64,000 nt of DNA, from contig OZ024743.1 of NCBI GenBank assembly GCA_964016885.1, forward strand, positions 72,850,001 through 72,914,000, in the 5' to 3' direction. A program made the translations under genes and the position numbers. Positions 1,702 to 53,970 of the stretch are shown here, in pieces. Numbering within the stretch: position 1 is the first letter of the stretch; the number at the start of each line of letters is the position of its first letter. This DNA is from Eledone cirrhosa. Taxonomy: Eukaryota. The notes below the pieces were generated by a model, which made no database searches, was not told the DNA's origin, and was given only the letters and a program-made list of their open reading frames with translations.

Positions 1702-3572
1702 TTAATATAATAATATAATAATATAATATAATGTAATATAATATAGTGCAGTATGGTACATTGTATAGAGTATAGTATAGCGTATGATGCATCATAAAAT
1801 ATAAAATAGTAAATATTTTCAAGTGGGTCTATGTATAAGTAATCAATCCCAGATGAATGCATGTTGACATATAGCCAAAACGTATAATTTTCTTAGGTCA
1901 CAAAAGTACAATAGTACATATACTCACATATATAGATAGAAGTATAATTACATAGATACTCCATTAAAAACATACATACGCATTCATAGATATATACATA
2001 TACATATACGTATACATACATACACGCACACATACACACACATACACATATATACACATACATATATATATATATTCTCTTATCATACATACATAGATAC
2101 ATGTATACCCATGCAATTACATATGGTTATGTACCTTAATGTCCTTAGTCAGTAACGCATGAATCTATGGAAGCTAAAAAATTAAAAGGATAAAATATTA
2201 ACAGGACGGCGTATAATTAGGAGAAGGGAATACTAACAAAAGGTACGTCACATAGAGCTATAGTGAGCTGCTATTTAGAATGTTTAATTAGGTTTATAGT
2301 ACTTAAATATTTTTATTATACTGTGATTACAAGCTATAATCAGTTCTTGTCTTTTTTTCAATAAATCGTCCTTAGATTTAGTAATTTCCAAGATCTCACC
2401 GGAACATAATCTACATTCTCTTCTGTTCCCAAGATATGGAGTTCTTTGAAGAATGGTATCCCACGATAGCTTGAATTCTATTTTTTTTTCTTTTTATAGT
2501 TATTTACTGCTTCAGCTAAAGAAGTAGTGTTAGCTAGTTTAGTATTGTTAAAGCTACTGGAGTGTGCATAATATATTTTCTTAAGTGTGTTCGATGTAGA
2601 TCTTATATACGATTTGTTGGAGTCAGTAGTAGACACAGTACATTTATATATTACATTATTAATCAAACAGTTGCCATTTAAGGGGCAAACGCTTCTATTG
2701 TTGCAATTACAACCATACGTAAGATGGTTGTTGGAGGTACCTACATAATCATCATTAATCCTTGAGCTATTGTTATTGTAATTAATGTTAGAGAGAGAAT
2801 GAGTGCTGCTTTGTGGGTGATTTAGTGCTGGGGTTGTATTGTGATTTTGTGTTATGTTGTTTTTTTGTGTTGGGGATTTGGGTGGTTGTGTTTTCCAGGT
2901 TGAAAAATTGTATTATTTATCCTTTTAAAAGGTGCAGTCTTATTTAAATTATGTTGTGGTGGTGTGGTCATATTATTTTAAAGTTTATAAATATTGTAAC
3001 TGCTTATTTTCTGTTGGAGATTGTTTGATGTAGAGTATGAGAATGTAACAGTATATCTGTTAAATATTTGGTGGTATCTGTGGTTTGGTGGAAAATGTTT
3101 ATATAGAATTTCGAAGAATTTTGGAGGGATTTGTCCAATAGTTTGCAGGTTGAAGGGTACGTTGTACCATGTTATGTTTCTTTTGCGGTTTTTAGTTAAG
3201 TTCTTATTTTCACTTATATTAATGTGCTGTGTTCTAGAAGTGTTCCTATGGTTAGTATTTGTATTTGTGAAATTTGGTAAGTTGCAGTGGTTGTATTTGG
3301 TGTTATTATTGGGTAGATTATGAGAGGTTGAATGATTGGTAGTCATATGTGAGTTGTTAACATTAGTCATAGATCGTGTAGTAATAGTTGTTGTGGTTTT
3401 TCGGTTGTTTGGTGTGATAGGAATGACCCCATTAGGCATTTGTTTCGATGGTATTATTTGGTGTTTGTAAGTTTTGATAGGTTTTGTATTATCGTCCATA
3501 GTATATATACACAGCAATTTATTAATATCAACGGATTGCCGTATATATATATGTATATATATGTATATCAAT

Positions 3573-3632
<60 letters not shown>

Positions 3633-3850
3633 TTAATACGTATTTACTGAGTATTCAGTAAATATATATATATTCAGTATATAATACACAGTAAATAAAT
3701 ATATATACATATATATATACATATATACACACCAAGTTATTATTATCAACGGACTATATCTTTTAATACGTATTTACTGAGTATTCAGATTTTAATGCTA
3801 CATAAATTAAGTTAGAATTACATTTTGTAGTCATCTGTTTTTCCTTATAA

Positions 3851-3939
<89 letters not shown>

Positions 3940-3945
<6 letters not shown>

Positions 3946-4556
3946 GAAACAGGAATGTCCATCATCAGTAGTCTCTTGGTTATTATTGGTATTTCTTCGC
4001 ATTAAAGACTAGATACCTAAAATCAGTGCGAGAGGATAACTAAATTAAGTTATCGCGACAGAGGCAAGTAAACAACAAACATGGTAATAATGCAACGTAA
4101 AGAGAGGAAAAGCGAGACAAGTCAATGAATCTTGTGGGCTTAAGTCCGAACGAATCAAATGACGAGAAGAGGCAGACACGTCCGAGCCACGCGAAAAGTG
4201 AGGGAGAAAAGAATTTAACATAGGTCAGACGGGAGGAAGTGAGAGAGGGGGAGTAGCAGAGAGTGAGTGAGTGAAAGTGTTAGGAGGAGGCCAGCCGAGA
4301 GTGTGTGACGAGCAGCGTGGGTGAAAGAAAGCAAGAGGTAAAGGAGAGAGAAGGGGGGGGGGGAGAAAGAGGATAGCAGTAAAGTGACAGAAAAATAAGA
4401 ACCACAGCGAGGAAAAAAGATATATGTGAATGAAAAATGGCGTGCAGCGTTGTTGCGAATCGCTCGCACTGATTTTAGATATCTAGTATTTAATGCGAAG
4501 AAATACCAATGATAATCAGCAGACTACTGATGATGGACATTCCTGTTTCTCGGTCT
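3940..4556. repeat. pLTR-like segment bounded by ~90-bp inverted repeats (3940-4030 / 4466-4556) that contain a broken HHR core
   Basis: Direct reverse-complement match. CTGATGA-t gga cat tcc t is followed by GTTTC. A similar segment lies at 22465-22950. Confidence 0.7.
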
Positions 4557-4611
4557 ATTTTCATTCATATGTTCATATTCGCAACCACGCAGCACACTAG
4601 TTTTCATTCAC

Positions 4612-5369
4612 AAGCTCAAAGTATAAATACGGAACATTATAATATTAATATGTGTAGAAGTAAACACAGCAAACCCATGTCTAAAATTACGAGGGTAGAT
4701 TACACCACAAATGTTATATATAATTCAGGTTGAATGATATATAACATTTGTGGTGTAATCTACCCTCGTAATTTTAGACATGGGTTTGCTGAGTTTACTT
4801 CTACACATATTAATATTATAATGCTCAGTATTTATACTTTGAGCTTGTTAATTGCAGGGTATCTATATTAGTTAACTCTATATTTTATTTGTATTTCGGC
4901 TCCTTATCTGTTGAGCATATAAAAATGAGTGTAAATAGGCTATTATTTCTAGCATAACCAGTCGCACCGCATTTGACTTTCAACGCACGAGGTGTACACT
5001 TTAGTGAGTTTATTGTTATGGGTGTTATGTAACATTTAGTCTCATCTCTTGCTGACGAAATGCCTACAGATTACTTGTTACAAATACGATTCATTCAGGG
5101 CGAAACAGATTAAATCTTTAGTCTGTCCAGGAGATGAAATGGTTATTGATATGGTATGTATGAGAAATTTTGTAAGAAATCTAGTAAAATACCATATGAT
5201 TCAGGTTGAATGATATATAACATTTGTGGTGTAATCTACCCTCGTAATTTTAGACACGGGTTTACTGTGTTTACTTCTACACATATTAATATTATAATGC
5301 TCAGTATTTATACTTTGAGCTTGTTAATTGCAGGGTATCTATATGAGTTAATAACTCTATATTTTATTT
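4612..5369 (+). mobile_element. Retrozyme/pLTR-like element: 476-bp monomer, ~168-bp terminal direct repeat, plus an inverted 5' copy
   Basis: 4723-4890 is repeated at 5199-5369. 4612-4720 is the reverse complement of 4736-4846. One HHR lies inside and the element ends in (TA)n. Confidence 0.8.
5042..5137 (+). ncRNA. Type I hammerhead ribozyme
   Basis: tcatctcttg-CTGACGA-(aat gcct...gggc)-GAAA-cagattaaa tc tttagtctg-TC-caggagatga. 10-bp stem I, 9-bp stem III, predicted GUC cleavage after 5127. Confidence 0.85.
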
Positions 5370-5431
5370 ATATATATATATATACGCATATATATATATA
5401 CAGGCATAAAATAAAGGAGTGTTCTTATGTT

Positions 5432-5900
5432 GCAATAACCACCATCATGTTATATATAATATATTCAATAACCGCCATCATGTTATATATAATATATTCA
5501 ATAACCACCATCATGTTATACATAATATATACAACTACCATCATGTTATATATAATACATTCAATAACCACCATCATGTTATATATAATATATACAACAA
5601 CTACCATAATGTTATATATAATATATACAACTACCATCATGTTATATATAATATATACAACAACTACCATCATGTTATATATAATATATACAACAACTAC
5701 CATCATGTTATATATAATATATACAACAACTACCATCATGTTATATATAATATATACAATAACCACCATCATGTTATATATAATATATAAAACAACTACC
5801 ATCATGTTATATATAATATATACAACAACTACCAACATGTTATATATAATATATACAACAACTACCATCGTGTTATATGTAATATTACAATAACTACCAT
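5432..5900. repeat. Minisatellite, 30/33-bp unit (accatcatgttatatataatatatacaacaact), about 14 copies
   Basis: Period of 33 read directly. It explains the repetitive ORFs at 5210-5893. Confidence 0.95.
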
Positions 5901-5951
5901 CAATTTACATATAATATTGCCCTAAATACGATGTTATAATAACCACTATAG

Positions 5952-6110: not shown

Positions 6111-6256
6111 TATATGTCCTTCTCACCTTCATTCTCTCACACCCTCTCTCATTCTCTGGAAGAAATCTTCTGTATTCAGGCCAGGAGAGTATTTTGCTCG
6201 ACAAGGTTTAATATTGCGAGTTTATTAATACGACGCTGCAGGAGATACGGGATCAT

Positions 6257-7348
6257 GCATAATAACCCTCACGTTATATATAATGTATAATAACCCTCAC
6301 ATTATATATAATGCATAATAACTCTCACATTATATATAATGCATAATAACTCTCACGTTATATATAATGCATAATAACTCTCACATTATATATAATGCAT
6401 AATAACTATCACATTATATATAATGCATAATAACTCTCACGTTATATATAATGCATAATAACTCTCTCATTATATATAATGCATAATAACTCTCTCATTA
6501 TATATAATGCATAATAACTCTCACATTATATATAAGGCATAATAACTCTCACGTTATATATAATGCATAATAACTCTCTCATTATATATAATGCATAATA
6601 ACTCTCACGTTATATATAATGCATAATAACTCTCACATTATATATAATGCATAATAACTCTCTCATTATATATAATGCATAATAACTCTCACATTATATA
6701 TAATGCATAATAACTCCCACGTTATATATAATGCATAATAACTCTCACATTATATATAATGCATAATAACTCTCACGTTATATATAATGCATAATCACTC
6801 TCACATTATATATAATGCATAATAACTCTCACGTTATATATAATGCATAATAACTCTCGCGTTATATATAATGCATAATAACTCTCACGTTATATATAAT
6901 GCATAATAACTCTCACGTTATATATAATGCATAATAACTCTCACATTATATATAATGCATAATAACGCTCACGTTATATATAATGCATAATAACTCTCAC
7001 GTTATATAATAAGCATAATAACTCTCACGTTATATATAATGCATAATAACTCTCACATTATATATAATGCATAATAACGCTCACGTTATATATAATGCAT
7101 AATAACTCTCACGTTATGTATAATGCATAATAACTCTCTCATTATATATAATGCATAATAACTCTCACATTATATATAATGCATAATAACTCCCACGTTA
7201 TATATAATGCATAATAACTCTCACGTTATATATAATGCATAATAACTCTCACGTTATATATAATGCATAATAACTCTCACGTTATATATAATGCATAATA
7301 ACTCTCACGTTATATATAATGCATAATAACTCTCACGTTATATATAAT
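6257..7348. repeat. Minisatellite, 28-bp unit (gcataataactctcacRttatatataat), about 39 copies
   Basis: Period of 28 read directly. Confidence 0.97.
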
Positions 7349-10241: not shown

Positions 10242-12172
10242 ATGAACGCTGCGTCCAACGAAAATGGTGGTGGAGAGGCGGTAAGACTACAAAGCTCGCA
10301 GTCAACATCGTCTTCTTCACTAGATACTATAGAGATGGAAAGACAAAATGAAAATGCAAAAACATATTCATATCAAAACAACACAAATGACACCAAACAG
10401 TTCAATGACAACAAAAATAACAGCAACACCAATAATGATGATAAAAACAACAATGATAACAACAACAAAGAAAAAAATAAAGACAACACCAATAACACCA
10501 GCATCAAAGACAACAACAACACCAAGGAAAATACGAATAATATCAACATCGGTGACAACAAGAATAACAACAACAATAACAACAATTATGACAACAGCAC
10601 CAACACGGATAATTCCACAAAGAAACCAAAAACTCCTTTGCAGAGACAGTTCAAAAACAGGAGGAACTGATATATCTCGACATAACAAATGCTGAACAAC
10701 TTTTAAAGGACGCTAGGAGATATGTCACTTTCCAAAAAAATGGTGCTTTCAGCATCAATTCTCCGGTAGAAATTCGCAAGGAAACTGCTCTCAAAACGAT
10801 AGTTTTTAGGACAGTTTCCAATTCTACCCGAAAACCAGTCCAATTATCACAGAAAGAAATTGAACTGGTTTTCAAAAGTTGAATGAATGATATTGCATTC
10901 ATTCAAAGAAGCAAACTTTTTGGGAGTATTTCGGTACTCATGAAGGATCAATTGACGGCCCCAAATTACTCTGTGTCGCCAATTGTATCCAACCTGTACA
11001 CCTTTTTCCCTACATACATGGGAAAAAGGACACAAAAGATCAAAATCACGAGTGTCACACCAAAGGTGAACATATGGTGGATACTGTGCGGCTTCATCAA
11101 TTTTGATGAAGACAGAATACTGTCAGTAGGAAAGTCCACCAGAGATGTATTCAATGGGACTAGCATTGAAGTTCTGGTGCAAATGAGCCCAGAGCGGATA
11201 GCTATGATCACACAACGTGTACTCCTGGACGGACTCACCTATATAAACTTTTCGGTTGAGCGTAGGCGGCCTTCATGTTACCATTGCTTTAGCAGGGGTC
11301 ACCTGAGGGCTTCCTGTCCTAAATTAATGAATAAAAAAAAGGCTCTTCTGCCGACACCCATCAAAACAACACGACCACCAACACCACCACAACAACAACA
11401 CCAACACACAAAAATAACCACAACAAACACAGTCCCACCCAACCCCACTCCACCTAAAACCACTGCAAAATCACATACAGACACAACTACTCCCCAAGAC
11501 ATACCCCTCCCCAATCACACAGACGATACAACAGATGAGGCTATCTCGCCATCACCCAGTGAAGACGAGGGAGAACCCCATCGCTCGAAAAGAAAGAAAA
11601 GACATCACAAAAGCAAAAAACCAGCAAAAACTACCACAAACATACAACCACTAATACAAACAACAAAAACATCACAAACGAAAACCCCACCTCCTGAAAA
11701 CAAAATACCTACAACAAAACGAAAGCACACACAAGAACTACAGACAAAAACAAACACAACACAAGAAAATTACACTTACACTTACATAAACACTGAAAAC
11801 AAAACACTAATGGAGAAGGGAAAACTTTCGCCCACTATTAAACATAGCAAAAAACTGAACCTAAAACTGATTAGGGTCCCTATACAAACTTATAGGTCCC
11901 TAAAAGAAACATTTGAGAAGGATGTGGGGAATTCCTGCGTGAAACCACTCAACCGAGTCCTTCTCAAATGTCTCCCCACAAGCCAGACACCCCCATCCCA
12001 CCAGACCCCACCACACCAAACATCTCCGTCCCCACCCCGCGGGAAACCACCACCCATCCAGACAACCCCTCCAACAACCCCATGGAAATCGTGCGGCCTG
12101 GTCTCCAGGAGACGAAGGGTGAGTGATCTCTTTTCCTCTTTTAACTTTTCAGCACCAACATGGCGAATATAA
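10242..12172 (+). pseudogene. LINE ORF1 (gag-like): Asn-rich N-terminus, CYHCFSRGHLRASC zinc knuckle, Pro/Thr-rich C-terminus
   Basis: ORFs 10242-10670 and 10883-12172 are joined by an open frame after a frameshift near 10650, with one TGA at about 10880. Confidence 0.8.
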
Positions 12173-15100
12173 GAGTTGGATGTGTGAACGTACGCGGCCT
12201 GGGGATGACCTGGAAAGAGGGCAAACTCTTAAACGACCTCAGGTCGCACAGTATGGATGTGGTAGCCATTTGCGAGTCCAGGATCCACAGCGAGCGACAG
12301 CTGCCCCCCCCCCCCCCCATCTTCGATGACTTTGAGATCTACGCATCTCTCTGTCAACCGGGGCGTGGGGGCGGAGTTCCCGTTTTGCTGCGGAAACACC
12401 TGGGCCTCGTAACACAGACGGTACATCTTGACCCGGAGGGTCGACTGGCGGTCCTAGACGTTGACGGTAGTGAAGGTGGAGCCTTCAGGCTGGTGGCCGC
12501 ATATGCCCCATCCGGGACACCATGGCCAGACTTCTTCAAACGTCTAGAGACTTTTCTGGGAACGTCTCGCTCCCTGCTGTTAGTGGGGGACTGGAATGGA
12601 ATCCTAGTTGCACGTTGGAACTATGTGGGAGCAGTTAATCGACCGATTTGACCTGGCCGATAGATATCGACTAGATTTTCCGACTGCGCCACTGTGGATG
12701 TGGAGTAATCGTAGCGGAACATCTAGATCGTACCTAGATAGGGTTCTAGTTAGAAATAAGGATAGAGACATGTTAAGCTGTCCACAAATATTCATAGTTG
12801 CCTATTCAGATCACAAACTAGTGACCTGCATGGCCAACCTTGATAGAACCCATAGACAAGGACCCGGCTACTGGAAGCTGAACTTGTCGTAACCGACAAG
12901 CAAAGCCTACAGTAGACGGATTAGCACTTTAGTTAAACAGCACTTGACAGGGGCCATTGTCAACAACAGATGGTGGTACTCTCTCAAGAGGGCAGTTAGA
13001 TTAGACTCGATAGTTTTTAGTAAATAATTAGCGTTAGATAGAAATAGAACCGAGAAGGAACTGGTATATTAAGTAGAAGAGGCAATTAGAAGTGGCAACG
13101 TAGCCAGCGTGCTAGCAACGAGAACGGACTTGGACCAGTTCTTCGACGCAAAGCTGGAGGGTTGCGTTGTCAGAAGCAAAATAAGTGCTCTGGGAAACGA
13201 GGGAGCCAAAGCTGTTAGCTGGGCCCGAGTGACGGAGGCAAAAAGTGGCAACAAGTCCACGATTCGGTCTTTGGAGGACCAAAACGGACGCGTGATACGT
13301 GAGCCGAAGCAGATGTGTGCGGCTTTTCAGCGGCACTTTGCTCAACTGTTAGGGAGGGGCGGCGCGCCGGGAGAGGCAATGGATTTCGGTCCATACCTCG
13401 ACGGCCTACCGCGACTCTCGGACAGCGAGGCAAAGTTCTGCGAAAAGCAGATTTCAGCCGCTGAGATAGGGGACGCGCTGAGCCAATGCGGCAAACGCAA
13501 ATCTCCAGGTCTCGACGGTCTACCCTACGAATTTTACGTAGCAATGCCGGACTTATTCTCCGGTCTCCTGGAAGCGGTCTACTGCAACTGGCAACAGAAC
13601 GGAAGAATTCCCAGTTCTGTAACCGGGGGCGTGGTCACACTATATCAGGAAGGACGAGAATAAGGGGGATGTCATAACCACAGAGTTACAGATTTTGGCC
13701 AAGGTGTTTGCAAAGAGGCTGGCGCTTGTTTGTCGAGAACCTGGTGGGAGAAGCGCAGACATGCGCAATCCCGACCAGGTCTATACACGACAACCTCCAC
13801 CTCATGCGATACATCATAGAGAGGGTAGGGTGTAAACCCGGCTTCGGTGGGGCCCTGATCAAGTTGGATAAGTCTAAGGCTCTCAATAGGGTTGACCATC
13901 GTTACCTGGATGCGGTGCTCGAGGCGGCAGGCTTCGGACCCGTGTTCAGGGGCTGGATTGCTGCAATGCACAACAGCAACATCTGCTCAAGGGTCAAGGT
14001 GAACGGCTACCTCTCGGAGCCGTTCCATATTACGCGATCCATTCGACAGGGATGCCCTTTCTCCTCCCTTCTGTACGTACTGACTCTCGAGCCACTACAG
14101 CGGAAGCTGGAGCTATTGCAGGGCATCCCTCTGGAACCGGGACTGCGGAAAGCGACGTCGGCCTACGCCGACGACGTGACAGTAATGGTGTCGTGCGCCT
14201 CGCAAATCGAGGAAGTCGGCACCTTACTGAAGGAATACGAAAGTTTCACAGGAGCGAAGCTGAACCGGGACAAGTCCATCGGTTTGTAACTCAGATCGTG
14301 GAGAGGCAAACCGATGCCTTCCAATGGCCGGAAGGACCGGTAAAGCTGCTCGGAGTCTGGTTTGGTCCGGACCTCCAGGTGGAGAAGAACTGGAACGAAC
14401 TGACGGCCAAGGTGTTTGCACTCACCCAGAAGTGGGCCGAGTGCAAACTATCCTTGAAAGGTCGAGCGGAGGTGGCGAACACTTTTATAGCGTCCGCCAT
14501 CTACTGCCTTGTCCAGCCAAAACGCTCGCCAAAATGGAGCGCGCGCTCTTCCGATTCCTTTGGAAGAGGCGGGCTCCTTTGGTGAGAAGATCCATCTGCT
14601 GCCAACACCCTTCTAACAGAGGGCTGTGGATGCCGTGTTTGACGATGCGCAAACACGCGCTCAGGCTGCGGCATCTCTACGTATTCCTCACCGGACAACT
14701 GGTGTGGGCCCCGTTCGTGAGGCGAACCTTCCCACGACTCGTCTCGCTGACCGAGCTGCAGTCCTGGGTCAAGCAAAGACCGAGGATAATGGGCGACTGG
14801 CACATCGAATGTTCTCAGGCGCTCACAGCCCTCTGGCAGGCGGACTCGGCGATCAGTGGAGACTCCACTTCGTCATTCTATAGAGGGCTGATCCGCAGCA
14901 AGTGCGACGACGCGCTCCGTGAAACTCTAGGCGTAGAGGAAGATGAACTGGCCAGTCTGTTCGGTAGAACCTTCCGCCCGGGACCGATGGACAACTTCCA
15001 AATGTCCCTGGCCTGGCAGTGCTACCGAGGAGCTCTACCAGTTCGAGACAAGCTCTACAGACATGGGCGTCCGGGCAGGGACCCTGCAAAAAAGAACTGT

Positions 15101-15513
15101 CCGAGGTGCGTCCGAGACAAAGAAACCGTCGCGCACGCATTCATACAGTTCCCGGGCGTCACTGACCTGTGGAGCTATGTAGAACGATTATTGTCGCGGG
15201 TGGGACCAATCCGGTTGACCACCGAGTCCATTGTCATGATCAAACCGCCACCCTGCTTCAAAAAGGAAGGAGAGGCGATTTTCCTTTGTGTGATAGCTAT
15301 GGCGAAAGAGGTTGTATGGTGGACAAGGTTGAAAGGGCTGAGGTCAGACACCTTTCTCTCCGGCCAACAACTGATTCTTTTTTTCAAATACCATTTGGAA
15401 GAAGAATCAGGATGGAGAGAGAGGTGCTGTACCCCAGCAAGTTTTATGAAAGGTGGGTGAAAGTGGCGAGAATGGCCCGAGTGAATAGGCCTTCTCTCTA
15501 TAACAGCCTGTAG
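12160..15513 (+). pseudogene. LINE ORF2: AP endonuclease, reverse transcriptase and C-terminal Cys finger, with frameshifts and stops
   Basis: Motifs NVRGL, GDWN, YLDRV, SDH, GYWKLN, KSPGLDG, RQGCP, YADD and CPRC occur across consecutive frames. Confidence 0.93.
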
Positions 15514-24620: not shown

Positions 24621-25671
24621 ATATTAACAAATGGAAACTATATTTATAAAACCATATGTATTGTATTATACATATTTCAAGGGCCACCAAGGCAGATTAT
24701 GGTGCGCTTTCATCAGATAAAATACAATACAGATTAGTTTCATAAATAAATATTGACATACCCTGAAAAAATGCAAACTTTAACGGTTGGAGCTTCCTGG
24801 ATAGTGGAGATATTTGATTTACTGTTATTATTTAGTATGCAAATGAGTATCGGAAAGGTTTAAATAACAGTATATTTAAATTAAACCGTTGGAAGATAGA
24901 AAAAAGAAAGAGAAAAAGAACTGTTTATATATATATTTTGCCAGTGGGAGAGAGTAAACGTGACTATATTTAAGTGAGAGAAAATATCGATAGAATCTTC
25001 AAATCCAAAAAGAATCCACCTTCCAACAAAGTACTAATGGATTTTGAAAATGAGATCATCTCTAATATACAAAGCATTAAATTTAAAAAAAACAACTTCG
25101 TAGGCCAGGATTACCTAAGAAATCTCAAAAATAATATAGAAAGCTTTGAAAAAACGGAAAAAATTCTAGTCAAGTCAGATAAAGCCAACAATCTTTATGG
25201 AATGCAAAAGGATATTCATAACGATCTTATATTGAAGGAACTAAGGAAGAAATACAAAAACAAAAAACCAGTGATGACCTTGAAAAACTACATACGGAAG
25301 CTTCTTACATAATGCAGGAATTAGACATCGAAAATAGGACACAACCCTTCATGCCTAGGAAACCAAAAATTACTATGAAGGACCATAAAAGAAATTTTGA
25401 AATTGAATTACCAGTAGCAAGAATATTTTAGACAGAATCATACCACAAATTAAGGAATTATCTTATTTAAAATTATGGAAAGGGACTAATGAAGTTATCG
25501 ATTGGTTTAAGGACATTAAATATAACTATAATAATAAATTTATTCAATTGGATATTGCTAATTATTACTCCTCCATCACTCCTAATCTACTTAATAAAGC
25601 CCTCACATATGCATTTAAACATACAGATTTAACTAGTAATGAAATGCACATTATCTTAACTGCACGGAAAA

Positions 25672-25826: not shown

Positions 25827-28346
25827 AATTAAATTTAACAACCACCTCTGGACTAGAGCAGACAGAGATAGTAATTTCGATATTACTATGGGGTTATCCG
25901 ATTCGGCACAAATAACGTATCTTGTGGGGCTTTTTATTAATAATACTCTACATAGTAAAATACCGGAGATGACCGGTGGTTTATATCGCGACGATATGCT
26001 ACTACTTATAGAAAATAATAATAACTGTAAAATAAATAGGAAAAGAAAAGAAATTATACAATTTTTTTAATTGCCTTAATCTTAAAGTAGAAGTAGAGAA
26101 TAATTATAAAATAGTTAACTTTCTAGATGTAACTTTAAATCTTAATACTGGTCTTTATTATCCATTCCACAAAATAAATGAGAACCTAAACTATGTTAAC
26201 TTTAATTCCAATCACCCCAGATCCGTTAAAAACAATATAGTAAATTCTGTGCAGCAACGTATTTCTAGAATTTCAGCTAATAAGAATATTTTTGAAGATA
26301 AAGCACAATATTATAACGAAGCGTTAAGTAGTAATAATATTAAATACATTGATAATAATAATGTGCCAACTAACCATAACTATAAAAATTATAATAGAAA
26401 ACGTTACAATAACTCGAAAAACAAAAAAAGAAATAGAACAAGAAATATATTATGGTTCGCTCCCCCTTTCTCATTAAGTATTAACACTCCTATTGTTAAA
26501 TTATTCTTTAAAGCTGTAGATAAATGCTTTCCTAGAACACATAGGTATTACTCAATATTTAATAGACATACTATAACATTATCGTATTCCACCACTAGTA
26601 ATTTAGCGCAGAATATTAATAGAATTAATAATAGAAACTTAAAACCTAACCAGAATACCATTAATAACCCTAGTAACATCCAATATAATAGTACGGCTCC
26701 TAGTAACTTAAATTTAGATAAATGTAACTGTAGATATAAATCTAACTGTCCTCTAAATAATAATTGTTTAGTTAAAAATATAGTATACTATTGTAATGTA
26801 AAAACTAATGTAAATTCCTTTAATTATGTAGGCTCTACCTCCACAGATTTTAAGTCCCGTTTTAATAACCATAAATGCTCTTTTACGAATATTAGTAAAA
26901 AATCATCAACTTCTCTATCTAATTTACTATGGGACCTAAAATCAAAAAACACTAACTATTCTTTACTTTGGAATATTATCTCCAAACTCCTTCATTCAAT
27001 GCTTTATCTGAAAATTGTGCTCTTTGTATAGAGGAAATATTCTTTATGTTAAAAAGTAAGAATTCTGTTAATTTAAGGAATAATTTATTCAGTTCTTGTA
27101 AACATCGGTTAAATTCAACTTTTAAATATATATATAAAATGTAATATATAACTCATATCTTTTACATATCCTCTATTATTATTATACCTATCGATAATCA
27201 TTAGATTCCTTTTATATGACTGCTTGGAACTCCCTTAAAGGAAATAACATTTTTTCTTGAAACATTTTTCTTGATAAACCTACTGAAGGATTTAAGGAAA
27301 ATATTTTGAAAATTCATCTGACGGGTATAGGAAAATTATAATTCATATTTTATATTGTGCATTTTTATATTTCTATATTCTTATATTTTTCAAATGCTTA
27401 ATATATATATATCCAAATGTTTATATATATATGATAAACATAGTGATTTTTTATGTATATGTGGTATAACCTAAAATTTATAATTTAAATATATTTTATA
27501 AATATATTCTTATGAAATATTTTTTTTTGTGCTTTATGCTTTAAATATATTCTTATGACAATTTTAAATGTTATAATTTCTATATGTTGTGACGTTATGG
27601 CAAGTAAATTTATGTTTTAACTGTTATACCTTTATAACAGGTAAATTTATGAATTTATAAATTTATGACTTAGTATAAAATAATATAAGATTCATATTCT
27701 AATTACATTCTTAAGATAGAAAATTTAACTTTTTAACTTCTTAACCTTGTAGCATTTAATCCTTAGAGTCAACTGAGTTATTAATAAATCACTAATAACT
27801 TCCTTTACGCTGTACTGCTATTATAATACAAATAAGGGGTTATTTTTCTGTAAACTCTCGGAATTTCCATGGGTTTAGAATTATTTGGATACTTTTAACC
27901 TACAATTTTTTAATAATTGATAATTAATGATAATATATATTTTATTATAATAATAATATATATGTTTTTATAAAAATAATATATATTTTTTAATGATATA
28001 TATTTTTTAATAATATATAATAGTTTTTATTTTTTAATTTTTTTAATAATCTAACATACACATTTAAACTAATGTTTAAACTATTAAATTATTAATTAAA
28101 CACTTAATCAAATTTATTAATTAAGTGTACCCACTCACTTCTAACTGTGACTGACTGTATCCCTACGGATTTGTTTGATGTCCAGCAACTTTTGCAGCGA
28201 TAGAAGTCTGAAAACTTTTATAACCTCAACTAAAGCTAATAGCAGTCGCCTTGTCTCTGACTGACTGATGTGTCTTCATATGAGGGAATGAATTGTGTGA
28301 GAGAACGTCGTTTTTTTCTGCCTCATATCAAGAATTTGAAGACAAT

Positions 28347-34330: not shown

Positions 34331-37300
34331 ATGAAATATAAGAATCAAAGAACTGTTCAAAACATTATTGTGCTTACAGCTGTTTCCTCCAAACCGAGGT
34401 TTGGATTCTTCGGAGCAATTTATTAATGCATGGACAGTTATATGACCTCCTTTTCAGCCGAGAGGCATACCGATACATATTCAAACATTGATACATATTC
34501 AAACATTGTGGGTCAACATTCATTACAGAATTTAGAGTGGCAGTACACACTTCGAGATTACATTTATATTAATAGGTACAATCAAAAATCAAAAATACAG
34601 GTTAAAATACAACATGAAGATAAGCGGTTATATAGTGCAAATGTTATATGTGTGGCACGCATGTGCGTCTTGTTTATATAGTGTGGCAGAGAGATATGTG
34701 TGGTAGAGGCACTTAGGTAGGTAAACAAGAGTGTTAGGTTGGTAGATCTGGTGGCAAATTCATTATATGATTGATAGAGTCTGTGTGTGGAGAAATGTTA
34801 TAAGCATTAAAAATAGTGCAAGCATTAAAAGTGTTAAAAGTATTGGAGATGTACAGCGAAGGGATGTCAAGTATTTCATGTACTTCGACATTTTCATGGT
34901 CAGGGGAGTGTATTTTTCGATTATATGCCCCTCACATAATCCACGACAATTCGATATTGAGAGTTTGACAATCCAGTTAGAGATCGTAGTCTGGTGTTCT
35001 TTAGTTCAATACAGGAGGCTGTTACGTTTCGAGAAACGCCATTGAATACCACCCGGAAGTGTGTGTGTGGCTAAGGGGAGTTAATGCATGCGGGGAGGTA
35101 ACTCCGGGGTTTCTATACCTAGCTATTAAAATGTGTCACAGTATACACCCTAATTTCTATGGTGATGCGCATCCCCCAAAAACATTTTTAAAGCATAAAG
35201 TGTATTAACTATAGAGTAGTTTAATTAAGTTATGCTGAAGGTGATCATATTATTATGGTGGATTAATCCATCGTAATGTGCCACAAATGGAAATTATAGA
35301 TGATGAGCGAGGATTCTAAATTAATGATCTCTGTGGTTGTAGTCTACTCATAGGACCAGGCGCGGTGATTGCAGGATTGCTTCAGGACCGAATGATCTCT
35401 GGTAAGTTCTGGGTCATCGCTTGCTACATTGGATGTCGAAAGATAATCATCCCCAGGCCGGCCAGAGGTCAATCCGCGGTACTCGCGACCCCTCTCTGAC
35501 CGTCAGATCATCCATATATGTACAACCCGCACGGCAGTTGCAATGCATTCACTCACTGCGCTCAGCAGCCTGGTCCTACTGCTCAACAGCGTTACTAGAT
35601 TAAATCGTTTATCATTTGTCTAAGGAAGGTGTTTCCTCTGCACAACACTATCCAACCGATCAATTCATGCTCAAATTACCCATAGAGCGGTGTAGTGCCG
35701 TTCAAGTGGGTGGATGTTGTCACACCTGACGTAGAGGTATAAATGGGTATTCTCCCTGCGAAGGGTTCCAGAGGGACGTCGTTGTTTGTGTTATATTAGA
35801 TCAGTTATTGTTGGGTATGTGGTATAAGGTGTGTCTCTGGTGTTTGATGCTAGATGTGGTGTTAGGTTCCAGTCCGACATTGCTATATATTGCTGATGTA
35901 GGTATGTATGTTGACGTGTGTATGTTGTGGGTTCGTCTTAGGGAGAATTGTTTAGACGGGGTCCGTATTTGTTAATAAAGTGAGACTCCTTGCTGATGCG
36001 CTGGGTGTGGAGGACATTATCTTTAAATTTGTAGAGGGGAAAGATTCTGAATTTGGGATGATTTGGGGCGGCACATGTATCAATGTGTTCACTCAGTCGT
36101 ATTTTCCTGTATTCTCGTATTTTAATTTGGGATCTATGGACAGTCATGCGTTGGCGGAGGCTGTTTTTGGTCTGGCCTATGTATTGTTCTCGACAACCTG
36201 AGCAAGTTAATACATATATTGGATTTTCTGATGCGCATGTGAAATTGTGTTTTACTATAAAACGTTGTCCTTCTTTGAAATAGAATTCCGAACCCTCTAT
36301 TAGGTTGATGCATATGCCACAGTTGGGTCTATCGCTTTTTTTATTATGGTTTTCGTTGTTGTGGTTGGCAGTACTTTGGCATGTGTTAGGATGTTTTTCA
36401 TTGATTTAGATTGTCTTTTGCTCTTTATGATATCGTGTGTTCGTAGGATTTGGTTCATTCTATGGTCCTTTTTTAACACAGGGATGTTCTGGAGGATCGT
36501 TTCAAAGGCCTCATTGTTGAGGGTTTTGTGTGTGGAAATGTATGGAAGAGCTTTTAGTTTCGGTTGATTTACTTTAGGGTGTCTAAGGTCCTGGGTACTG
36601 AGTTTTAGGGCACGTTGGATTCTATTGTCAATTAGTGATGTCTATGAGTGTTTCCTTTAGTTCTTGTAGCCATAACAGGTATTTTTATTGGAGACTATAG
36701 TACAGATTCTCTTGGCTAAGTTGTAGGGAATATTAATTTTAACGTGTCTAGGGTGGCAAGAGTTGAAAGGAAGATATTGCTTGGAGTCTGTGGGCTTGTA
36801 GTATATGTCTGTTTCTATTTTTTGTTATGAATCTTAATGAGGATGTCGAGCAAGCGGGGTTTTTGATGGCTGTATTCCATCGTGAAGTTAATATTCGTGT
36901 TGAGCCCATTTACAAGGGTGTGAAAATCTTTAAGTTTCTCGATGTTTTCGTGCCAAAGGATGAAGAAGTCATCTATATATCGCTTCCAGTTCCTTTCTAT
37001 GTGTAAGTGGAGAGTGTTTCCGAATTTGTTTAGTACTTTAGTGTAGAGGGTGATTTCCAGGTATCCCATGACTAGGTTGGCATACGTGGGGGCTGTTTTC
37101 CTTCCCATAGCGGTCCCAGATTTCTGCCTGTAGGGTTTGTTATTGAAAACGAAGTAATTGTTCTCCAAGATAAATTTGAGTCCCTCTATCACGAATTCTT
37201 TTTTGAAGCGTTGTGGGAGTTCATTGTGGTAATTATCCAGCCAGAATTGGATAGCTTCTATTCCTAGGTTGTGGGGAATGTTGGAGTATAGGTTGACTAC

Positions 37301-39880
37301 ATCGAACGTCACTAGTAGGGTTTGTTCAGAAAGGGGCATATTAGGGAGCTGATTCAGCATATCTAGGTCGTCCCTTATATAGCTTTTGATGTGTTTGAGA
37401 AAAGGCTTGAGAAGGGTATCAATGAAGTTGCTAAGGCGGTGGGTTTCGCAAGCGGGGCCTGCTATTATAGCTCTTAATTTGAGATCATTGGGTGAGGGGA
37501 CATTGATGACTATGTATGTGGCTTCCTTGCATGCCTTACTTATTAATTAGCTTTTATGTACTTTAGGGATACCGTAGAAAAGGCTGGATTTACTTGTGAA
37601 GTCTGTGATGAAGCTGAATTCCTTGTTAGTGAGTCCTTCTTTGTATTGGTTGATCAGTGTTTTTAGGTTTCTCATAATTTTCTGTTGATTGTAGTGGTCA
37701 GCCTTTTCGTAGTATGTTTCGTTTTCAAAAGTGGAGAGCGCAAAGTTGATATAGAATTCTGTCTCCATTAGGACTACTGTACTCCCTTTATCAGCCTCTT
37801 TAATTCTAATGGTTCTGTCGGTTTTAATCTATTTAATTCTTCCCATTCTTTCTTGTTGAGGTTTGGCTTGTGTTTTTGTCTGTGCAAGTGTTGGTAAGGG
37901 AAGATTGTGATGTGTTCATAGAATTCGTCCAGGATTTCATTTCTACCTTTCGATGGGATGTAATTGCTTCTATTTATGGCTAATGATTCATACTCATTGT
38001 ACTGGTCGAATAGTTCTTCACTGAGTCGTAACTTTCTACAGAAGTCTGTGATGTCTTCCTTCATTTCATAGTAGTTAAGACGTAGTGGGGTCGGTGTGAA
38101 TTTAAGACCTTTGGAGAGTAAGTTGATAAGGTTGGGTGTTGGTTTTGCACTAGTGAGATTGATAATTTTTATTACTCTCGGTTTCTCCTCCCTGTCTTGT
38201 GTTATTTTGTTTGCCTGTATCTGTGTGCTGTGTCTAAAAAATGGTTGGGGTAGAGGGGTTGTATGCTGATGTTAAATGGTCTCCTGTGTTTGTTATATTC
38301 CTTGTTGTTGTAAAATGTGGTTCGGGTTCGTGGTTGTAGATTGAATGGGGTTTTCCTGTATTGCGAGTATGGATGTGTGTTTCTATGTGCCATGTTGGAT
38401 TGTGGTGTTATAAGTGGCCTACGTTGTTGGTTGTATCGTGTGGTGTGGGTTTGTTGTGTATTGTGGAAGCGAGAGTTGAGAAAATGGAAATTACCTTGCT
38501 GTCCCCTTGAAGCGGGGAAGTCTATCATGGTGGTGGTATCTTTTCCCTATGTTTGACGATGAGGCATCCGCGTAGTAGTTGAGTGATTTGGTATGGTGTC
38601 TCCTTGAAGGGGGAAAGTTGTAAATGTCATTCTGGGGGGTGTTGATTTCTAGGGTTTTTGTTCCTTCTTATGGTAGCGAGGTTGGGAAGTTCATCTTCGG
38701 TGTGGTGTTTCCTTCTTCTTTTGTTATTGGCTGGGGGGTTTGCGAAGTTGTTGTGCGGTTCGGTTATGGGTTTTCCTATTTTTATGAACGGGTTATTGGA
38801 GGTGTAATCCATAGAAAAGTCGATTCATAGTGTAGGAACCAAGCGACACTTTTTTTCCCAGAGTTGAAGGGAGTTCAGTTCTTCTCTGTTGTAGTCCCCT
38901 TTCCTTAATTTAGAGATCTTTTCTACCTTGGGGCCTTCAGTCTTATTGTTGATTTCCAGGAGGATCTCTTCATCGATGGTTTTGATTTTTTCCTCATTTG
39001 TCTGGGCCCTCAATTTAAGAAGTTCAATTTCGGTCTTCATTTTTTCCAATGCCATTCTTTCCCTAAGCTGTCTTTGAGGTTTGGGTTCATTTGGAATGGA
39101 CTATATTTGTATTTTACGGGGGAGAGTTAGAGGGGTTGAGTTAAGCCATTTTTCATATATCTCCGCTTTGTTGTGATTTTGTATCACCTTCCAGAATAAG
39201 AACTTTCTGTCTCTGAAGGATTTGTTCCATTTTGGAATTGTTTGAATTTTCATTTTGTATGAATCAATCTCACATGGCTCTTCGTTGGTTTTTCCTGGGT
39301 TGGTAGTAGTGAACATAGTTTGGATAGTATCGCAAAGGTTTTGAAGTTTATCGCCGATTTCGGAGGGTTTGTATCCGGTGACGGTTTCCACATTTGTGGA
39401 GTCAAGTTTGTCGACCAGCACAGATAAGTTAGTGTTAATTTTCTTTAGTTCCTGTAGAATCTTTTCATTTGTGTTGATAAGAGTTGTATATGTTTTGTTG
39501 CCATTTTATGTATCTCGTGTGAGGATATGATATTTAAAAGAATAGAAGTGTAACACACGAGTTATGATATATTGGTAAAAGTAAAAGAAAATGCTGACAA
39601 ATTGTTCCCAGTGAAAAATAGTTTAATTAGGAATAAGTAAAAATTAGTAATAGTATTGGTTAGTATTCAGTTTTGGTTTTAAGTTTTACCGGGTGCGCAT
39701 TTCTAATGCTTTCAAAAATAATTTTGAGATAGAGCGCCCGTGATTAGTTTTGGAAATTCTACCTGTTTTATGTAAAAAAAAGTGGCTCCAGATGTATGAA
39801 GAAATTATTGTGGTCAAAACAATTTTGATTGATCGGTAGAGATCATGTGAATATTAAAAATTGATTTTGCACCAATAGTA
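34325..39880 (-). mobile_element. Near full-length degenerate Penelope-like element (Neptune-like)
   Basis: The coding region at about 39504-35938 has LSKGLKFTPTP, FYGIPKVHK, FDVVNLYSNIP, GTAMG, RYIDD, a Cys linker and GIY-YIG. There is a 1.6-kb 3' UTR ending in an HHR. Confidence 0.92.
34371..34417 (-). ncRNA. Minimal hammerhead ribozyme (U4C) at the 3' end of the Penelope element
   Basis: tgct-CCGAAGA-a tccaaac ctcg gtttgga g-GAAA-cagctg-TA-agca, with palindromic stem III ACAGCTGT. Confidence 0.8.
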
Positions 39881-41266: not shown

Positions 41267-41470
41267 GTCCCTATAGCTTGAGGGAAGTTCCCTTCCCATT
41301 GCGTTGTTGTTGCCCATATAGCTAGAGGAAGGTCCTGGCCCTGAGGTGTCTACATGTCGCGAGGAAGTCCCTATAGCTTGAGGGAAGTTCCCATCCCAAA
41401 GTGTTGTTATTGTTCATATAGCTTGAGGAAGGTCCGGGCCTGGGGTGTCTACATGTCCCGGAGAAGTCCA
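41267..41470. repeat. 100-bp tandem duplication at the end of the Penelope ORF
   Basis: gtccctatagcttgagggaagttccc occurs at 41267 and 41367. Confidence 0.9.
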
Positions 41471-43444
41471 TCCTGAGTTTTATCAGGCTGCTTCCACCGC
41501 TGAGTATCTCGAGGGTCTCGCTCAGACATAGTTTGCAGATGCCAGATCCCCCTTTATCAGGTGGTACTTTCCTGATTTTGGAGCAGACCAGAGAGTACGG
41601 GGTCCTGTCCAGCTTGAGCTTCCTGATTATTTCGGAAAGAGCCGTACTTTTCCTTTTGTCCTCCCTGTTAAAGGAATGGCGATGTTTATACCATCGGTCC
41701 TTAAAGTTCGTTGATGTGGCTCCTATGTAAAGGAGTTCAGGGTTGGGGGATTTTACTCTACATCTGTATATTAAGTTCTTCCTTAGGCATTCATTACTAA
41801 GGGGGCATAATGCTGGGTTTCTGCAGTTGCAGGAGGTGGTCGACCTCCGCGTATCTAATGTGGGGTTCCCGTTGTCTGTTTGGGTTACTGGGTCCACCCT
41901 TCTTTCCCTCCACATGGTTATGCCGGGTGCCTATATTGAAAGCTTCCGGTTGTATGTGGTTTTTAAGTCTACCCCGATTAATGCTAGCTATGTGCTGGGC
42001 CACATTTCGCGTGGTAGAATATGAGAGCTTTACAGTGTGTCTGTTGAAGATCTTGCGGTATCTATGGTCATTCGGGAAGCATTTATCTACTGCCCCAAAG
42101 AATGAGCGGGCAATGCTGTTCTTTAGGGCGGCTGAATATGGTGGGTTGTACCACGTGATTTTCTGTCTACTCCTATGTGGGTGGGTTGAGCGTGCGGTGG
42201 GCTGTTGGGGAGTTGTTGGGTTGCTAGTGGTTCCCGCATTGCTGCTTCCCCTTTGGGCTCTATGTGTTCTGCTAACTTCCCGGCCCGTATCTCTGGGGTG
42301 GTTGTTACCCACGCTGGAAGTTCTACGGTGGGATTGTCTTCCATCGGTCCCGCTTCGTGTCTTGCGGTTGGGGGCGTCGGGAACGGGGTGGTTGATATCA
42401 CCCTTGAGGCCGCTACTCGTACCGGGTTTCCTCCCATGGTTATGTGTACGCGTGCCTCTCGCCAATGTGGTGGTGTCGGGTTCATGGTGTTTAGTTGTTT
42501 TTACTCTGCTTGTATTGTTAGTGTTCCCCGCTCCCAGATACCGTGGGTCGGGGTATCCGTTGGGCGGATTAAATGATATATTTTGGCCATGCGCCGCCTT
42601 ATTTAATGCTGCGTTGAAATATTCCGCGTTGCTATCGAAGATCTTCTTATTTGCGGACAGGCTGGAGATCCTGTCCGAGACAGTCTTCACTACGGCCTTA
42701 ATTATTGATCTAGGGTGTTTTGATTTGGCGTTAACATATACCAGTCTCTCGTTGGGCTTGTGATAGGGGTAGTATTGCTCGGTGTTCAGGTTTAGGGTGG
42801 TGTCTAGGAAGTTAACTACCTTTCTATTTGGGTCTAGTTCGATATTGAGCCCATGGTTCTTAAAGAATTGCCGAATACGCCTCTCAATTCTCTCCACCAT
42901 TTTTTCTCCATCATTTTTTTTTACTACTTCATTTTTTTACTTCTTCATTTTATTGTATCGTACCTAATTATTTTATTATTTATTTTATATTATATTTTTA
43001 TATTTTATTTCTTCATTTTACCTTATCTGATTCCATTGTCTGTTTGGCACCCCCCACCACGTGAAAGCGTGGGGGAATTGGTGCCAACCCACACACACTC
43101 ATTCTTCTAAAGACAGCAGCAGTAGAACTAAAGCTGACCTGCCAGCTGACCCCCTAACACCAATAAACACAAGGGAAGATGTCAGCTGTACTTAACAAAA
43201 ACAACCACAACAGATTGTCTTGCCTCAGAAAAAAGGATCTATAGACTTTTGACTGAGGAATGTTCTCACAACTGACCAATGGGAGGAGAGAGTGACCTAT
43301 GATGCAGAAATTCGTTTGTTCGAATTCATATGATTCCAGTTCCTCAGAGAAATAACAACCCAACCAGGAGCTGGACATATCGGAGTATTGACAGAATAAA
43401 ACACTTTAACAACATGTGTACCTGTCTCTACCACACCAGTTCCA

Positions 43445-52373: not shown

Positions 52374-53970
52374 TTACAAGGAATCTTGTAGAGTGAATAG
52401 AGCAATTTTTGCTACATTCACCCACCCTTCAGTAAATTTACTGGGGTCTCTCTTCAGTCTCTCTCTCGCCACTCTGATTCTCCTTCTAAAGTGGTACCTA
52501 AAGAAGGGAATGAGTTGTTGTCCGAAGAGAAAGACATCTGTTCTCAGTCCTCTCAATCTCGTCCACCGTATAACCTCTTTAACCATAGCCACTATACAGA
52601 GGAAAACCACCTCGCTTTTGTTTTTGAAAGAGGTTGGCGGTTTGATCCTTACTATGTACTCGGCAGTCAACTGGATTTGTCCCATACGCGATAGCAGTTG
52701 TTCTGCGTAGTTCCACAGATCGGTTACGCCCGAGCAGTGTACAATTGCGTGCAAGATGGTTTTAATGTCCTGCTCGCGTCTTGGACTCGTCCTCTTGAAA
52801 GGATCCTGCCGGGGCGTCCGTGCCTGTAGATCTTGTCTCGAACTGGTAGAGCTCCACAGTAGCACTGCCAGGACAGAGACCTCTGGAAGATGTCCATAGA
52901 TCCTACAGACTGGTGAGCTCGTCGTCTTCGACGCCCAGAGTCTCTCCGAGCACGTCGTCGCACTTGTGACGTGCTAACCCTCTATAGAATGTCGAAGTGG
53001 AGTCTCCACTGATTGCTGTGCCCGCTTGACAGAGGGTTGTGAGCGCCTGAGATAGATAGATAGATAGATAGATATCTTTATGTATTTGCCACAGGCGCGT
53101 ACAAAAATGGTACATTACAAGACGTGACGGCTGGGGTTTTACATAAAATCATATAACTTTAACATTAACCTCGTCCACCATATTACCTCTTTCGCCATAG
53201 CCACCAGACAGAGGAAAACCGCCTCTCCTTAATTCTTAAATGAAGGCGGCGGAGTGATCCTCACGATGGACTCGGCTGACAACTGGATGCGTCCTACACG
53301 TGACACAATTCCACAGGTCGGTCAACACTGGGCACTGAACAATTACGTGCAGAACGTTTCGATGTCCTACTCGCATCTTAGACAGGTCCTTTTTGCAGGA
53401 TCTCTGCCAGGGCGTCCGTGTCTGTAGCTTTTGTCTCGAACTGGTAGAGCTCCTCGGTAGCACTGCCAGGCCGGAGACCTCTGGAGGTTATGCATAGGCC
53501 CGGACGGAAAGTCCTCCCGAACAGACTGGTCAGTTCGTCCTCCTCGATGCCTACAGTTTCCCAGAGAACATCGTTGCACTTATCCTCCACTAATCCCCTA
53601 TAGAATGTCGAAGTGGAGTCTCCACTGATTGCCGTTTCCGCTTGGTAGCGGGCTGTGAGCGCCTGAAGGCACTTGATGTGCCAGACAACCATTTTCGGTC
53701 TTCGCTTGACCCAGGACTGCAGCTCTGTTAGTGAGACGAGTTGTGGAAGAGCTTGTTTCACAAAAGACAACCACACCGGTTCACCGGTCAGGAATACCTG
53801 GAGATGGCGTAGCCTCAGCGCGTGTTTGCGCATCACCAGCCACGGCATGCCCAGCCCCCCGTTAGAAGGGTGTTGACAGCAGATGGATCTCCTCACCATT
53901 GGAACCTGTTTCTTTCAGAAGAACTTGAAGATAGATAGATAGATATGTTTCTTTATTAGCCACAGGGGCT
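52374..53970 (-). mobile_element. Stack of three 5'-truncated copies of the Tx1-like LINE, joined by (TATC)n
   Basis: 53945-53969 is the extreme 3' end (ccctgtggctaataaagaaaca). 53075-53928 and 52374-53049 encode the ORF2 C-terminus homologous to 14550-15510. Confidence 0.9.

Follow-up and report, generated by a model that had tools for sequence, protein, structure and literature searches.

What is a 476-nt unit that is repeated only in part, carries one hammerhead ribozyme motif and encodes no protein, and how was it copied? The locus that raises this question lies in a stretch of 64,000 nt from the genome of Eledone cirrhosa (assembly GCA_964016885.1, contig OZ024743.1, positions 72,850,001 to 72,914,000 of the forward strand), hereafter called the window, to which all coordinates without a locus number refer. 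We propose, with slightly better than even confidence, that the element is a dispersed repeat without an open reading frame (ORF), for whose copying the enzyme of a Penelope-like element (PLE) acted in trans on a unit RNA that had been cut by the ribozyme and was probably circular.

Layout of the copy in the window

The copy consists of the parts listed below. Unit positions are numbered from c1 = 5128, the first base past the ribozyme cut; positions c243-c246 are uncertain by about 4 nt.

4606..4727, minus strand: inverted, 5'-truncated partner copy, unit positions c80-c201
4718..4894, plus strand: upstream partial "tail" copy, c67-c243/246
4823..4844, plus strand: hairpin GCTC...GAGC (predicted fold), just past the upstream copy of fixed end 1 (4816)
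4898..4916, plus strand: hairpin GGCTCC...GTTGAGC (predicted fold), just past the upstream fixed end 2 (about 4894)
4913..4952, plus strand: most conserved motif of the superfamily, in sequence like a branch point and 3' splice site, with AG at 4951-4952
5042..5137, plus strand: type I hammerhead motif, cut predicted after C5127
5153..5159, plus strand: sequence like a 5' splice site, G/GTATGT, 26 nt past the cut site
5128..5369, plus strand: terminal tail (c1-c242); fixed end 1 falls at about 5292, and the copy stops at fixed end 2 (5369-5373)
5370..5402, no strand: (TA)n target, joined to the 3' end of the element

The period of the element is 476 nt and its GC content is 33%. The direct repeat (4718-4894 and 5194-5373) runs ungapped for 156 nt at a spacing of 476 with 4 mismatches, followed by a 3-nt indel and 22 further nt at a spacing of 479. 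The restart after 476 bp and the partial tandem given in a preliminary description of the sequence were thus reproduced, whereas the repeated part measures about 177-180 nt rather than about 168, and the unit count is about 1.38 rather than 1.35. Also as described, the repeat junction (4718) is away from the predicted ribozyme cut, and the 5' end is inverted, the piece at 4606-4727 aligning to 4731-4852 at 96%. The outer end of this inverted piece lies at neither of the two fixed sites and not in (TA)n, suggesting that it was probably trimmed. Its join with the upstream tail falls on a natural short hairpin (4718-4740), and a fold-back could be the origin of this particular partner.

No credible ORF was found, in agreement with the preliminary description: the frames within the element are shorter than 80 aa from stop to stop, with one exception of 227 aa. 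This frame was rejected as a gene of the element since it continues into a downstream 33-bp tandem repeat; it is spurious and results from related tandem repeats of 33 bp and 28 bp that are located just downstream (5433-5917 and 6255-7348). A MITE-like element with 94-nt terminal inverted repeats, 94% complementary, adjoins the left end (3939-4556).

The hammerhead motif comprises a stem I of 10 bp (5042-5051/5128-5137), the core CUGACGA (5052-5058), a stem II of 4 bp (5062-5065/5098-5101), GAAA from 5102 and a stem III of 9 bp. For the predicted fold we obtained z = -2.97, with 1 of 200 shuffles equally stable. The motif is single, as had been stated, but the qualification "strong" is not supported: three additional bases separate A9 from stem II, and the element in the window gave no match to the Rfam hammerhead models, neither at the gathering score nor at E <= 10. 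Sub-threshold matches to Rfam miRNA models arise from the inverted repeat and are meaningless. Across the family, the core CUGANGA is present in 95 of 101 motif-selected copies and stems I and III are 70-100% paired by position, where the selection by motif inflates the figures for stem III. In a shuffle test that is inflated by the kinship of the copies, stem I position 3 was found to covary (paired in 94/101; 2 of 2000 shuffles as high), while 107 of 2000 shuffles were as high at position 2. Motif, fold and conservation thus place a type I hammerhead within a non-coding unit in the range of roughly 150-1000 nt. As for activity in related elements, the available text of Li et al. 2026 (bioRxiv 10.64898/2026.07.22.740005) lists 8 of 9 predicted retrozymes without in vitro cleavage. 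With its single ribozyme, the window copy cannot self-release a unit-length RNA and is probably unable to give rise to new copies.

Repeats with ribozymes abound in this genome. At least 22 different clusters of type I hammerhead-like motifs were found in 1.04 Mb of sampled loci, one of them with two motifs 469 nt apart (L081:73 and 542). Hammerhead-like motifs of other families are present in the window at 24716 (minus strand), 29021 (plus), 43450 (plus) and 51452 (minus).

The dispersed family and its insertion pattern

A DNA search of the species' own genome (about 3.0 Gb) returned 1622 candidates; 40 were scored, giving 146 matching pieces, mostly of 89-96% identity. Exact genome matches numbered 127 for a ribozyme 22-mer and 457 for a tail 20-mer, as compared to 0 for the reversed controls. 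These counts dispose of a single-copy local duplication, which had been named as a result that would speak against a retrozyme-like circle. A fair estimate of the family size is several hundred loci, with subfamilies up to 15-25% apart. The sequence was also recovered from three runs of unrecorded kind from one sample, whose contigs represented only the family's variants and do not bear on expression; the runs listed as containing the sequence include no RNA run, a result that counts neither for nor against a circle.

Loci were sampled in list order so that their architecture would not bias the choice: 30 loci and 51 regions from the first 100 of the 127 ribozyme matches, and 30 loci and 40 regions from the first 100 of the 457 tail matches. 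A profile search identified 339 segments, or 282 without duplicates, of which 14 sister-family or spurious segments were dropped. The final set contains 268 segments in 163 loci, with 209 segments from the pattern sets.

Many copies, including L002, L009, L013, L018, L093 and L105, carry a nested copy, of at most about 190 nt, of an abundant unrelated repeat at c171 (4822 and 5298 in the window). It occupies an AT-rich spot in constant orientation and variable length with a 14-nt target duplication, and c171 is an insertion hot spot. The break at c171 was therefore rejected as an internal deletion point of a longer element, and the nested repeat was masked before the profile was built. About 16.5 kb past the end of the window, a further copy of the focal family with an inverted partner (L025) has two ribozyme motifs on opposite strands.

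The insertions have two fixed 3' ends. End 1, at about c165, is used by 101 of the 209 segments and end 2, at about c245, by another 87 (188/209 together), and (TA)3 follows within 22 nt in 150 of 184 such cases. The 5' ends are variable, with partial tandems across the copies. A head-to-head inverted partner is present at 64 of 128 loci. These partners mostly started from the same two sites, and their 5' ends are not mirror images of the main copies, which argues against simple fold-back for most of them. Partial tandems, inverted 5' copies and an optional tail are described as the PLE signature in the available sections of PMC8557442; the tail corresponds to the sequence that separates two internal RT start sites, and both DNA strands are extended in vitro (PMC11167929). 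The earlier proposal of mobilisation by a PLE is thus well supported by the two fixed 3' ends, the inverted partners and the (TA)n target, and the focal family is very probably a non-autonomous PLE-type element. However, the circular permutations with variable start points that were expected of a circle were not observed, since only the 5' ends vary, and the 1.35-mer with one hammerhead, which had been read as the signature of a circle, is an ordinary PLE partial tandem.

Could the element be no more than truncated pLTRs left behind by a PLE with an ORF, or a local duplication that arose once? In favour of this, a PLE protein match is found somewhere in the flanks of 41 of the 163 loci. At 14 loci such a match is nearby and on the same strand, but these matches belong to different PLE families and differ in their start points. 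The four loci that were read by eye (L078, L079, L099 and L158) are separate insertions, the other ten being judged from the table only. Furthermore, the sequence upstream of the ribozyme continues into the element's own tail and not into the end of an ORF, no RT plus GIY-YIG ORF between pLTRs was found at the inspected copies, and the copies number in the hundreds. Debris or local duplication is thus of almost negligible probability. Attachment to a PLE ORF with fixed ends, which was also expected to speak against a circle, was seen in no copy inspected.

The template of reverse transcription

The ribozyme cut site is passed with high precision. A total of 162 of 167 passages are without net indel and 0 have an insertion. 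The site is passed by 51 of 69 segments, corresponding to about three quarters of the cDNAs, and by 52 of the 87 segments that end at site 2. With 2 exceptions, the segments end before the hairpin that follows fixed end 2. In the anole PLE PAc, RNA located 3' of the start sites is required (PMC11167929). If the hairpin past end 2 is also needed, as we infer, the RT would have started mid-unit and crossed the junction. These observations suggest that the template was a unit-length RNA read across its junction, which we hold to be probable.

More than one unit is contained in 39 of the 209 segments, the longest of 1.9 units. Two cut sites are crossed by 5 segments, to which a sixth locus (L231) can be added, and an exact 15-mer pattern identified 3 loci with two ribozyme motifs at unit spacing. 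No locus with three motifs at unit spacing was found with exact 15-mers, a search that diverged arrays may escape, as they may the other exact-match searches. Nor were multimeric tandem arrays found in the family. Linear descent can only shorten a tandem, and the tandem must thus be regenerated, by a circle, by a precise jump or from longer masters. Of these, the circle is favoured because the junction is exact. A covalent circle is the best single mechanism and, judged from the genomic copies, somewhat more probable than improbable as the template. The preliminary description had opposed a retrozyme circle to a partial tandem pLTR, but these are not alternatives: in the relevant part of Cervera and de la Pena 2014 (PMC4209133), circular PLE templates were proposed as the cause of tandems longer than one unit.

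The copies within a locus resemble each other. The upstream and downstream copies in one locus differ by 5.0%, as compared to 9.4% between loci, and no single position-specific variant occurs in over 3 of the 44 loci. For the main and the inverted copy of a locus, the difference is 4.8%, against 12.8%. Rare variants are shared between main and inverted copies in 15 of 184 cases versus 4 of 450 in the controls (p 7e-6), and the signal for upstream and downstream tails is weak (5/160, p 0.06). Neighbouring copies could also have been homogenised by gene conversion.

The 5' ends were counted in 195 segments, from which loci ranked by score, loci taken with a 34-mer and pieces lying behind the nested repeat were excluded; nine boundaries were corrected by hand. 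Eighteen 5' ends are located at c0-c20, as compared to 4.7-6.8 expected under three baselines (p 2e-6 to 3e-4), where the truncation rates depend on base composition. At c0-c2, 4 ends were observed and 0.6-0.9 expected (p about 0.01), an indirect hint of self-cleavage. Thirteen of the 18 piled-up ends lie at c9-c19 and not at c1; stalling at stem I or a start of transcription would account for these as well. Of 12 long segments on their second pass, 5 continue through the site, 4 end at c3-c14 and 3 at c33-c37. At L006, L142 and L222, 10-15-nt reiterations of c5-c22 occur right at the 5' junctions and look like telomerase-type slippage.

In the mechanism that we propose, rare loci with two ribozymes would be transcribed and cut to the 476-nt unit, which would then be ligated to a circle or left linear. 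A PLE RT-endonuclease, for which the Hydra clade offers the best candidate, would bind the GCTC...GAGC hairpins and nick the (TA)n target, as suggested by the in vitro system (PMC11167929) and by the shared hairpins. The cDNA would begin at one of the two internal sites just 5' of the hairpins. Copying would proceed back across the cut site, without a scar in about three of four cases and over up to 1.9 units, and would stop at variable points with an excess just past the cut site, as seen in the copies. Both target strands would often be extended, which would account for the head-to-head inverted partners of the same subfamily seen among the copies. The copy in the window, with 1.38 units and an inverted piece, would be such a product.

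A circle would not be needed if the RT, after an internal start on a ribozyme-cut linear unit, reached the 5' end at c1 and then jumped precisely to a 3' end, either of that unit or of a second one. The excess of 5' ends at and just past the cut site fits such a jump, the reiterations at the three loci named above, near c5-c12, are like RT slippage at a template boundary, and the homogenised copies fit equally well. However, end-to-end jumps by the RTs of other retroelements are usually imprecise, whereas nearly all passages are exact here, none has added bases and about three quarters of the cDNAs pass the site, so that we regard jumping as rather unlikely. Alternatively, the template may be an uncut linear multimer, derived from two-ribozyme masters or unseen arrays, with a largely passive ribozyme and a pile-up caused by stalling at a helix. 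This is the scenario of Frangieh et al. 2024, in which unprocessed RNA is the main substrate (PMC11167929), and it is consistent with the six two-ribozyme segments or loci and with the location of most piled-up ends at c9-c19. Against it stands the fact that linear descent only shortens the tandem, while the longest locus has 1.9 units and arrays were not found; if the hairpin past end 2 is needed, the window copy would require a parent of more than 2.2 units. Also, subfamilies lie 15-25% apart and in each of them the upstream copies match the downstream ones, and the core and stems of the ribozyme are conserved. Taken together, we find an uncut multimer quite unlikely.

The four long copies that begin at c3-c14 of the upstream unit (L005, L006, L007 and L105) raise the question of whether the template was instead a SINE-like linear 1.4-1.5-mer, started from an internal promoter near c1-c14 and primed at the terminal tail or the (UA)n flank. 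For Penelope and Chlamys, the accessible part of PMC8557442 describes a start site together with an internal promoter that overlies a 5'-UTR intron. However, separately descending tails should diverge, and the small difference between the upstream and downstream tails of a locus largely refutes this model. Some copies also reach beyond the proposed start, and the conserved hairpin past end 2 is missing from the terminal tails. A SINE-like origin is thus very unlikely, and the unit-length, probably circular RNA is retained below as the preferred template.

Hairpins, candidate partner and known relatives

Within 3-7 nt past each fixed end, a GCTC...GAGC hairpin is predicted; the one at 4898..4916 has no counterpart in the terminal tail of the window copy. 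The hairpin past fixed end 1 is conserved in sister families, and the block c150-c305 is common to diverged neighbouring families. A degenerate motif derived from this block had 3502 genome matches (control 0). Among 30 loci from this list, 12 contain a direct repeat with a period of 488-592 nt, and their downstream copies mostly end about 58 or 137 nt before the motif end, like the focal family. A few of the motif loci, L253 among them, are probably unrelated. Consensus folding of the sister block (RNAalifold) recovered only a 4-bp hairpin and no compensatory change, and the hairpins are thus without covariation support. They may serve as RT-start recognition elements.

The sister loci form 24 sequence clusters, of which 16 have a hammerhead core downstream. 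A donor-like G/GT motif, selected after inspection of the data, is located within 70 nt after GAAAC in 11 of these 16 related clusters, as compared to a mean of 2.3 and a maximum of 8 clusters in 2000 shuffles. In the focal family, the GT and AG of the putative intron are 97-100% conserved, versus about 92% on average. The splice-like pair would define a 275-nt intron, c27-c301, that encloses both fixed ends and resembles the 5'-UTR introns retained in Penelope and Chlamys. No spliced copies (c26/c302) were present in the sampled loci, where sampling required tail or stem III motifs. At L228:2087-2368, a copy starts at the putative acceptor (c298-299) directly after a copy that ends at fixed end 1, an arrangement like a template jump.

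Among about seven ORF-bearing PLE families compared, the L377 family stands out. Its unit of 3259 nt (L377:1728-4987) has a 713-aa frame with the motifs RWR (41), DKT (119), CxCX5C (568), YIG (602), CxxC (666) and CxH (694). The frame matches the Hydra-clade motif set, including a C-terminal GIY-YIG, and the family shares the (TA)n target, according to the sections of PMC8557442 that treat this clade. Two TA-joined ends account for about 30 and 18 of 58 ribozyme-anchored copies, and 20 copies read on to the ATG. Each end is followed by GCTC...GAGC, and the second hairpin is nearly identical to that of the focal unit. A 56-nt alignment connects L377 to focal site 2; shuffles reached the score of the focal copy in 7 of 200 cases and that of two sister families in 0 of 200, and z is at least 2 in 8 of 22 sister families and below 2 in 14. 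The sister-block profile scored 9.1 bits on L377, against at most 4.5 in 20 shuffles and at most 0.3 on other PLE tails, a match that was found after viewing about seven PLE tails. Apart from the short motif in the hairpin region, no homology was found between the focal element and the L377 unit, and the latter has no splice-like donor/acceptor pair. On balance, a Hydra-clade PLE is a reasonably likely candidate for the mobilising partner. If so, animal retrozymes would be tied to one named PLE clade by a shared cis-element and not by co-occurrence. The L377 family (L374-L383) had 3126 first-look candidates; the Hydra clade has been described from few families.

The other families were rejected as partners. 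No terminal sequence is shared with the Neptune-like family of the window, a second Neptune-like family (L324), the L158 family, which we take to be Nematis-like, or the L334 type. The nearness of L334 and L079 to PLE ORFs reflects chance nesting in (TA)n. An active 830-aa Hydra-type family (L322) shares only the words GCTCC and GTTGAGC, and its alignments are not above chance. It is very young, with about 120 identical RT matches, and its 830-aa frame is intact; the units, arranged in tandem and about 6.1 kb long, have two TA-joined ends (L322:241-8784 and L323), and loop II of its hammerhead holds a donor/acceptor pair resembling a 60-nt intron. In the Neptune-like L324 and L099, the hammerhead is minimal, U replaces C at position 3 and stem III is palindromic; the RT frame is preceded by a further frame. 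Pfam and PDB sequence searches gave no useful match for the Hydra-type proteins.

How does the family relate to known elements? That retrozymes are non-autonomous PLEs and that PLE templates are circular are ideas already published, and the category is not new. According to the text available to us, animal retrozymes yield circles and PLEs are their likely mobilisers (Cervera and de la Pena 2020, PMC7229834), animal retrozymes are non-autonomous PLE derivatives (Li, Clavereau and Pollet 2026, bioRxiv 10.64898/2026.07.22.740005), and non-autonomous PLEs with pLTRs have been described (PMC8557442, section 10). The focal family resembles the metazoan non-LTR retrozymes, as portrayed in the parts of PMC7229834 and Li et al. 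2026 considered here: the units measure a few hundred nt, are non-coding and lie head to tail, the GC content is low, every unit has one type I hammerhead, and a circle and an RT borrowed from a PLE are proposed. It differs in its dispersed copies of at most 1.9 units, as compared to arrays from dimers to multimers, and in its 476-nt unit, long stem III and splice-site-like pair. The full PLE insertion signature seen here is undescribed in those parts of the two papers. Two ribozymes per locus, by which the consulted text of Li et al. 2026 defines retrozymes, are found at a few family loci but not in the window copy, and the family has no arrays; it is thus not a plain non-LTR retrozyme. Rather, it is a real, multi-copy, ORF-less PLE-type element that appears to work like one.

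With the EN+ PLEs, represented by the Hydra clade (PMC8557442, in part) and the anole Poseidon PAc (PMC11167929), the family shares truncated 5' ends, the partial tandem with an inverted copy beside it, the extension of both strands, and an optional tail bounded by two RT start sites 3' of the ribozyme; with the Hydra clade it also shares the (TA)n target. Unlike these PLEs, it has no ORF, and its tail is about 78 nt against their 30-40. The non-autonomous Chlamys PLEs, such as MRC1, are also ORF-less, pLTR-forming and head-to-tail, but they occur in green algae, generally lack hammerheads and share 3' ends with autonomous families (PMC8557442, as far as its text was available), whereas only the hairpin motif is shared here. 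In Penelope of Drosophila virilis, a ribozyme lies beside a retained 5'-UTR intron in the pLTR (PMC4209133 and PMC8557442, relevant passages), like the putative intron of the focal element. The Penelope intron precedes the ORF and its end abuts helix I, whereas the putative intron begins 26 nt past the cut and is not followed by an ORF. Literature searches, covering mostly open text without Repbase and supplements, gave no account of ribozyme monomers that occur dispersed and for which PLE start sites are mapped or splice-like motifs or a partner of Hydra type are noted, and the word ribozyme is absent from the portion seen of a recent Octopus vulgaris repeat annotation.

A circular template was proposed in 2014 as the way in which PLEs regenerate partial tandems (PMC4209133), and the copies of this family give indirect genomic support to that idea. 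In the only in vitro PLE system, from the anole, the ribozyme was dispensable and no reads stopped at the cut site (PMC11167929). For a test of template and ribozyme, the unit of 476 nt without an ORF is a small, direct substrate: its two start sites are mapped, it has a candidate recognition hairpin, its stop rate at the cut site can be measured, and a candidate intact Hydra-type protein is present in the same genome. In a wider and doubtful reading, a dozen or more ORF-less ribozyme circles of 480-590 nt and thousands of copies would parasitise a Hydra-clade PLE by mimicry of its RT-start hairpins and keep a working spliceosomal intron that spans these start sites. Splicing would then decide whether the RNA is a circle competent for transposition or a ribozyme exon of 200 nt, the insertions, with an acceptor upstream, a donor downstream and an inverted flank, would be ready-made cassettes for back-splicing or exon trapping, and their footprints would document, for the first time in a genome, that a PLE carries out rolling-circle reverse transcription.

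The window also contains remnants of other retroelements. Broken PLE ORFs are located at 2978-3643 (minus strand), 26036-27031 (plus), 35938-38271 (minus) and 41322-42936 (minus); one of the four is Neptune-like (RT and GIY-YIG by Pfam) and the others resemble Hydra-type proteins. LINE fragments, presumably L1/Tx1-like, with endonuclease and RT frames are found at 10883-15460 (plus) and 52374-53914 (minus).
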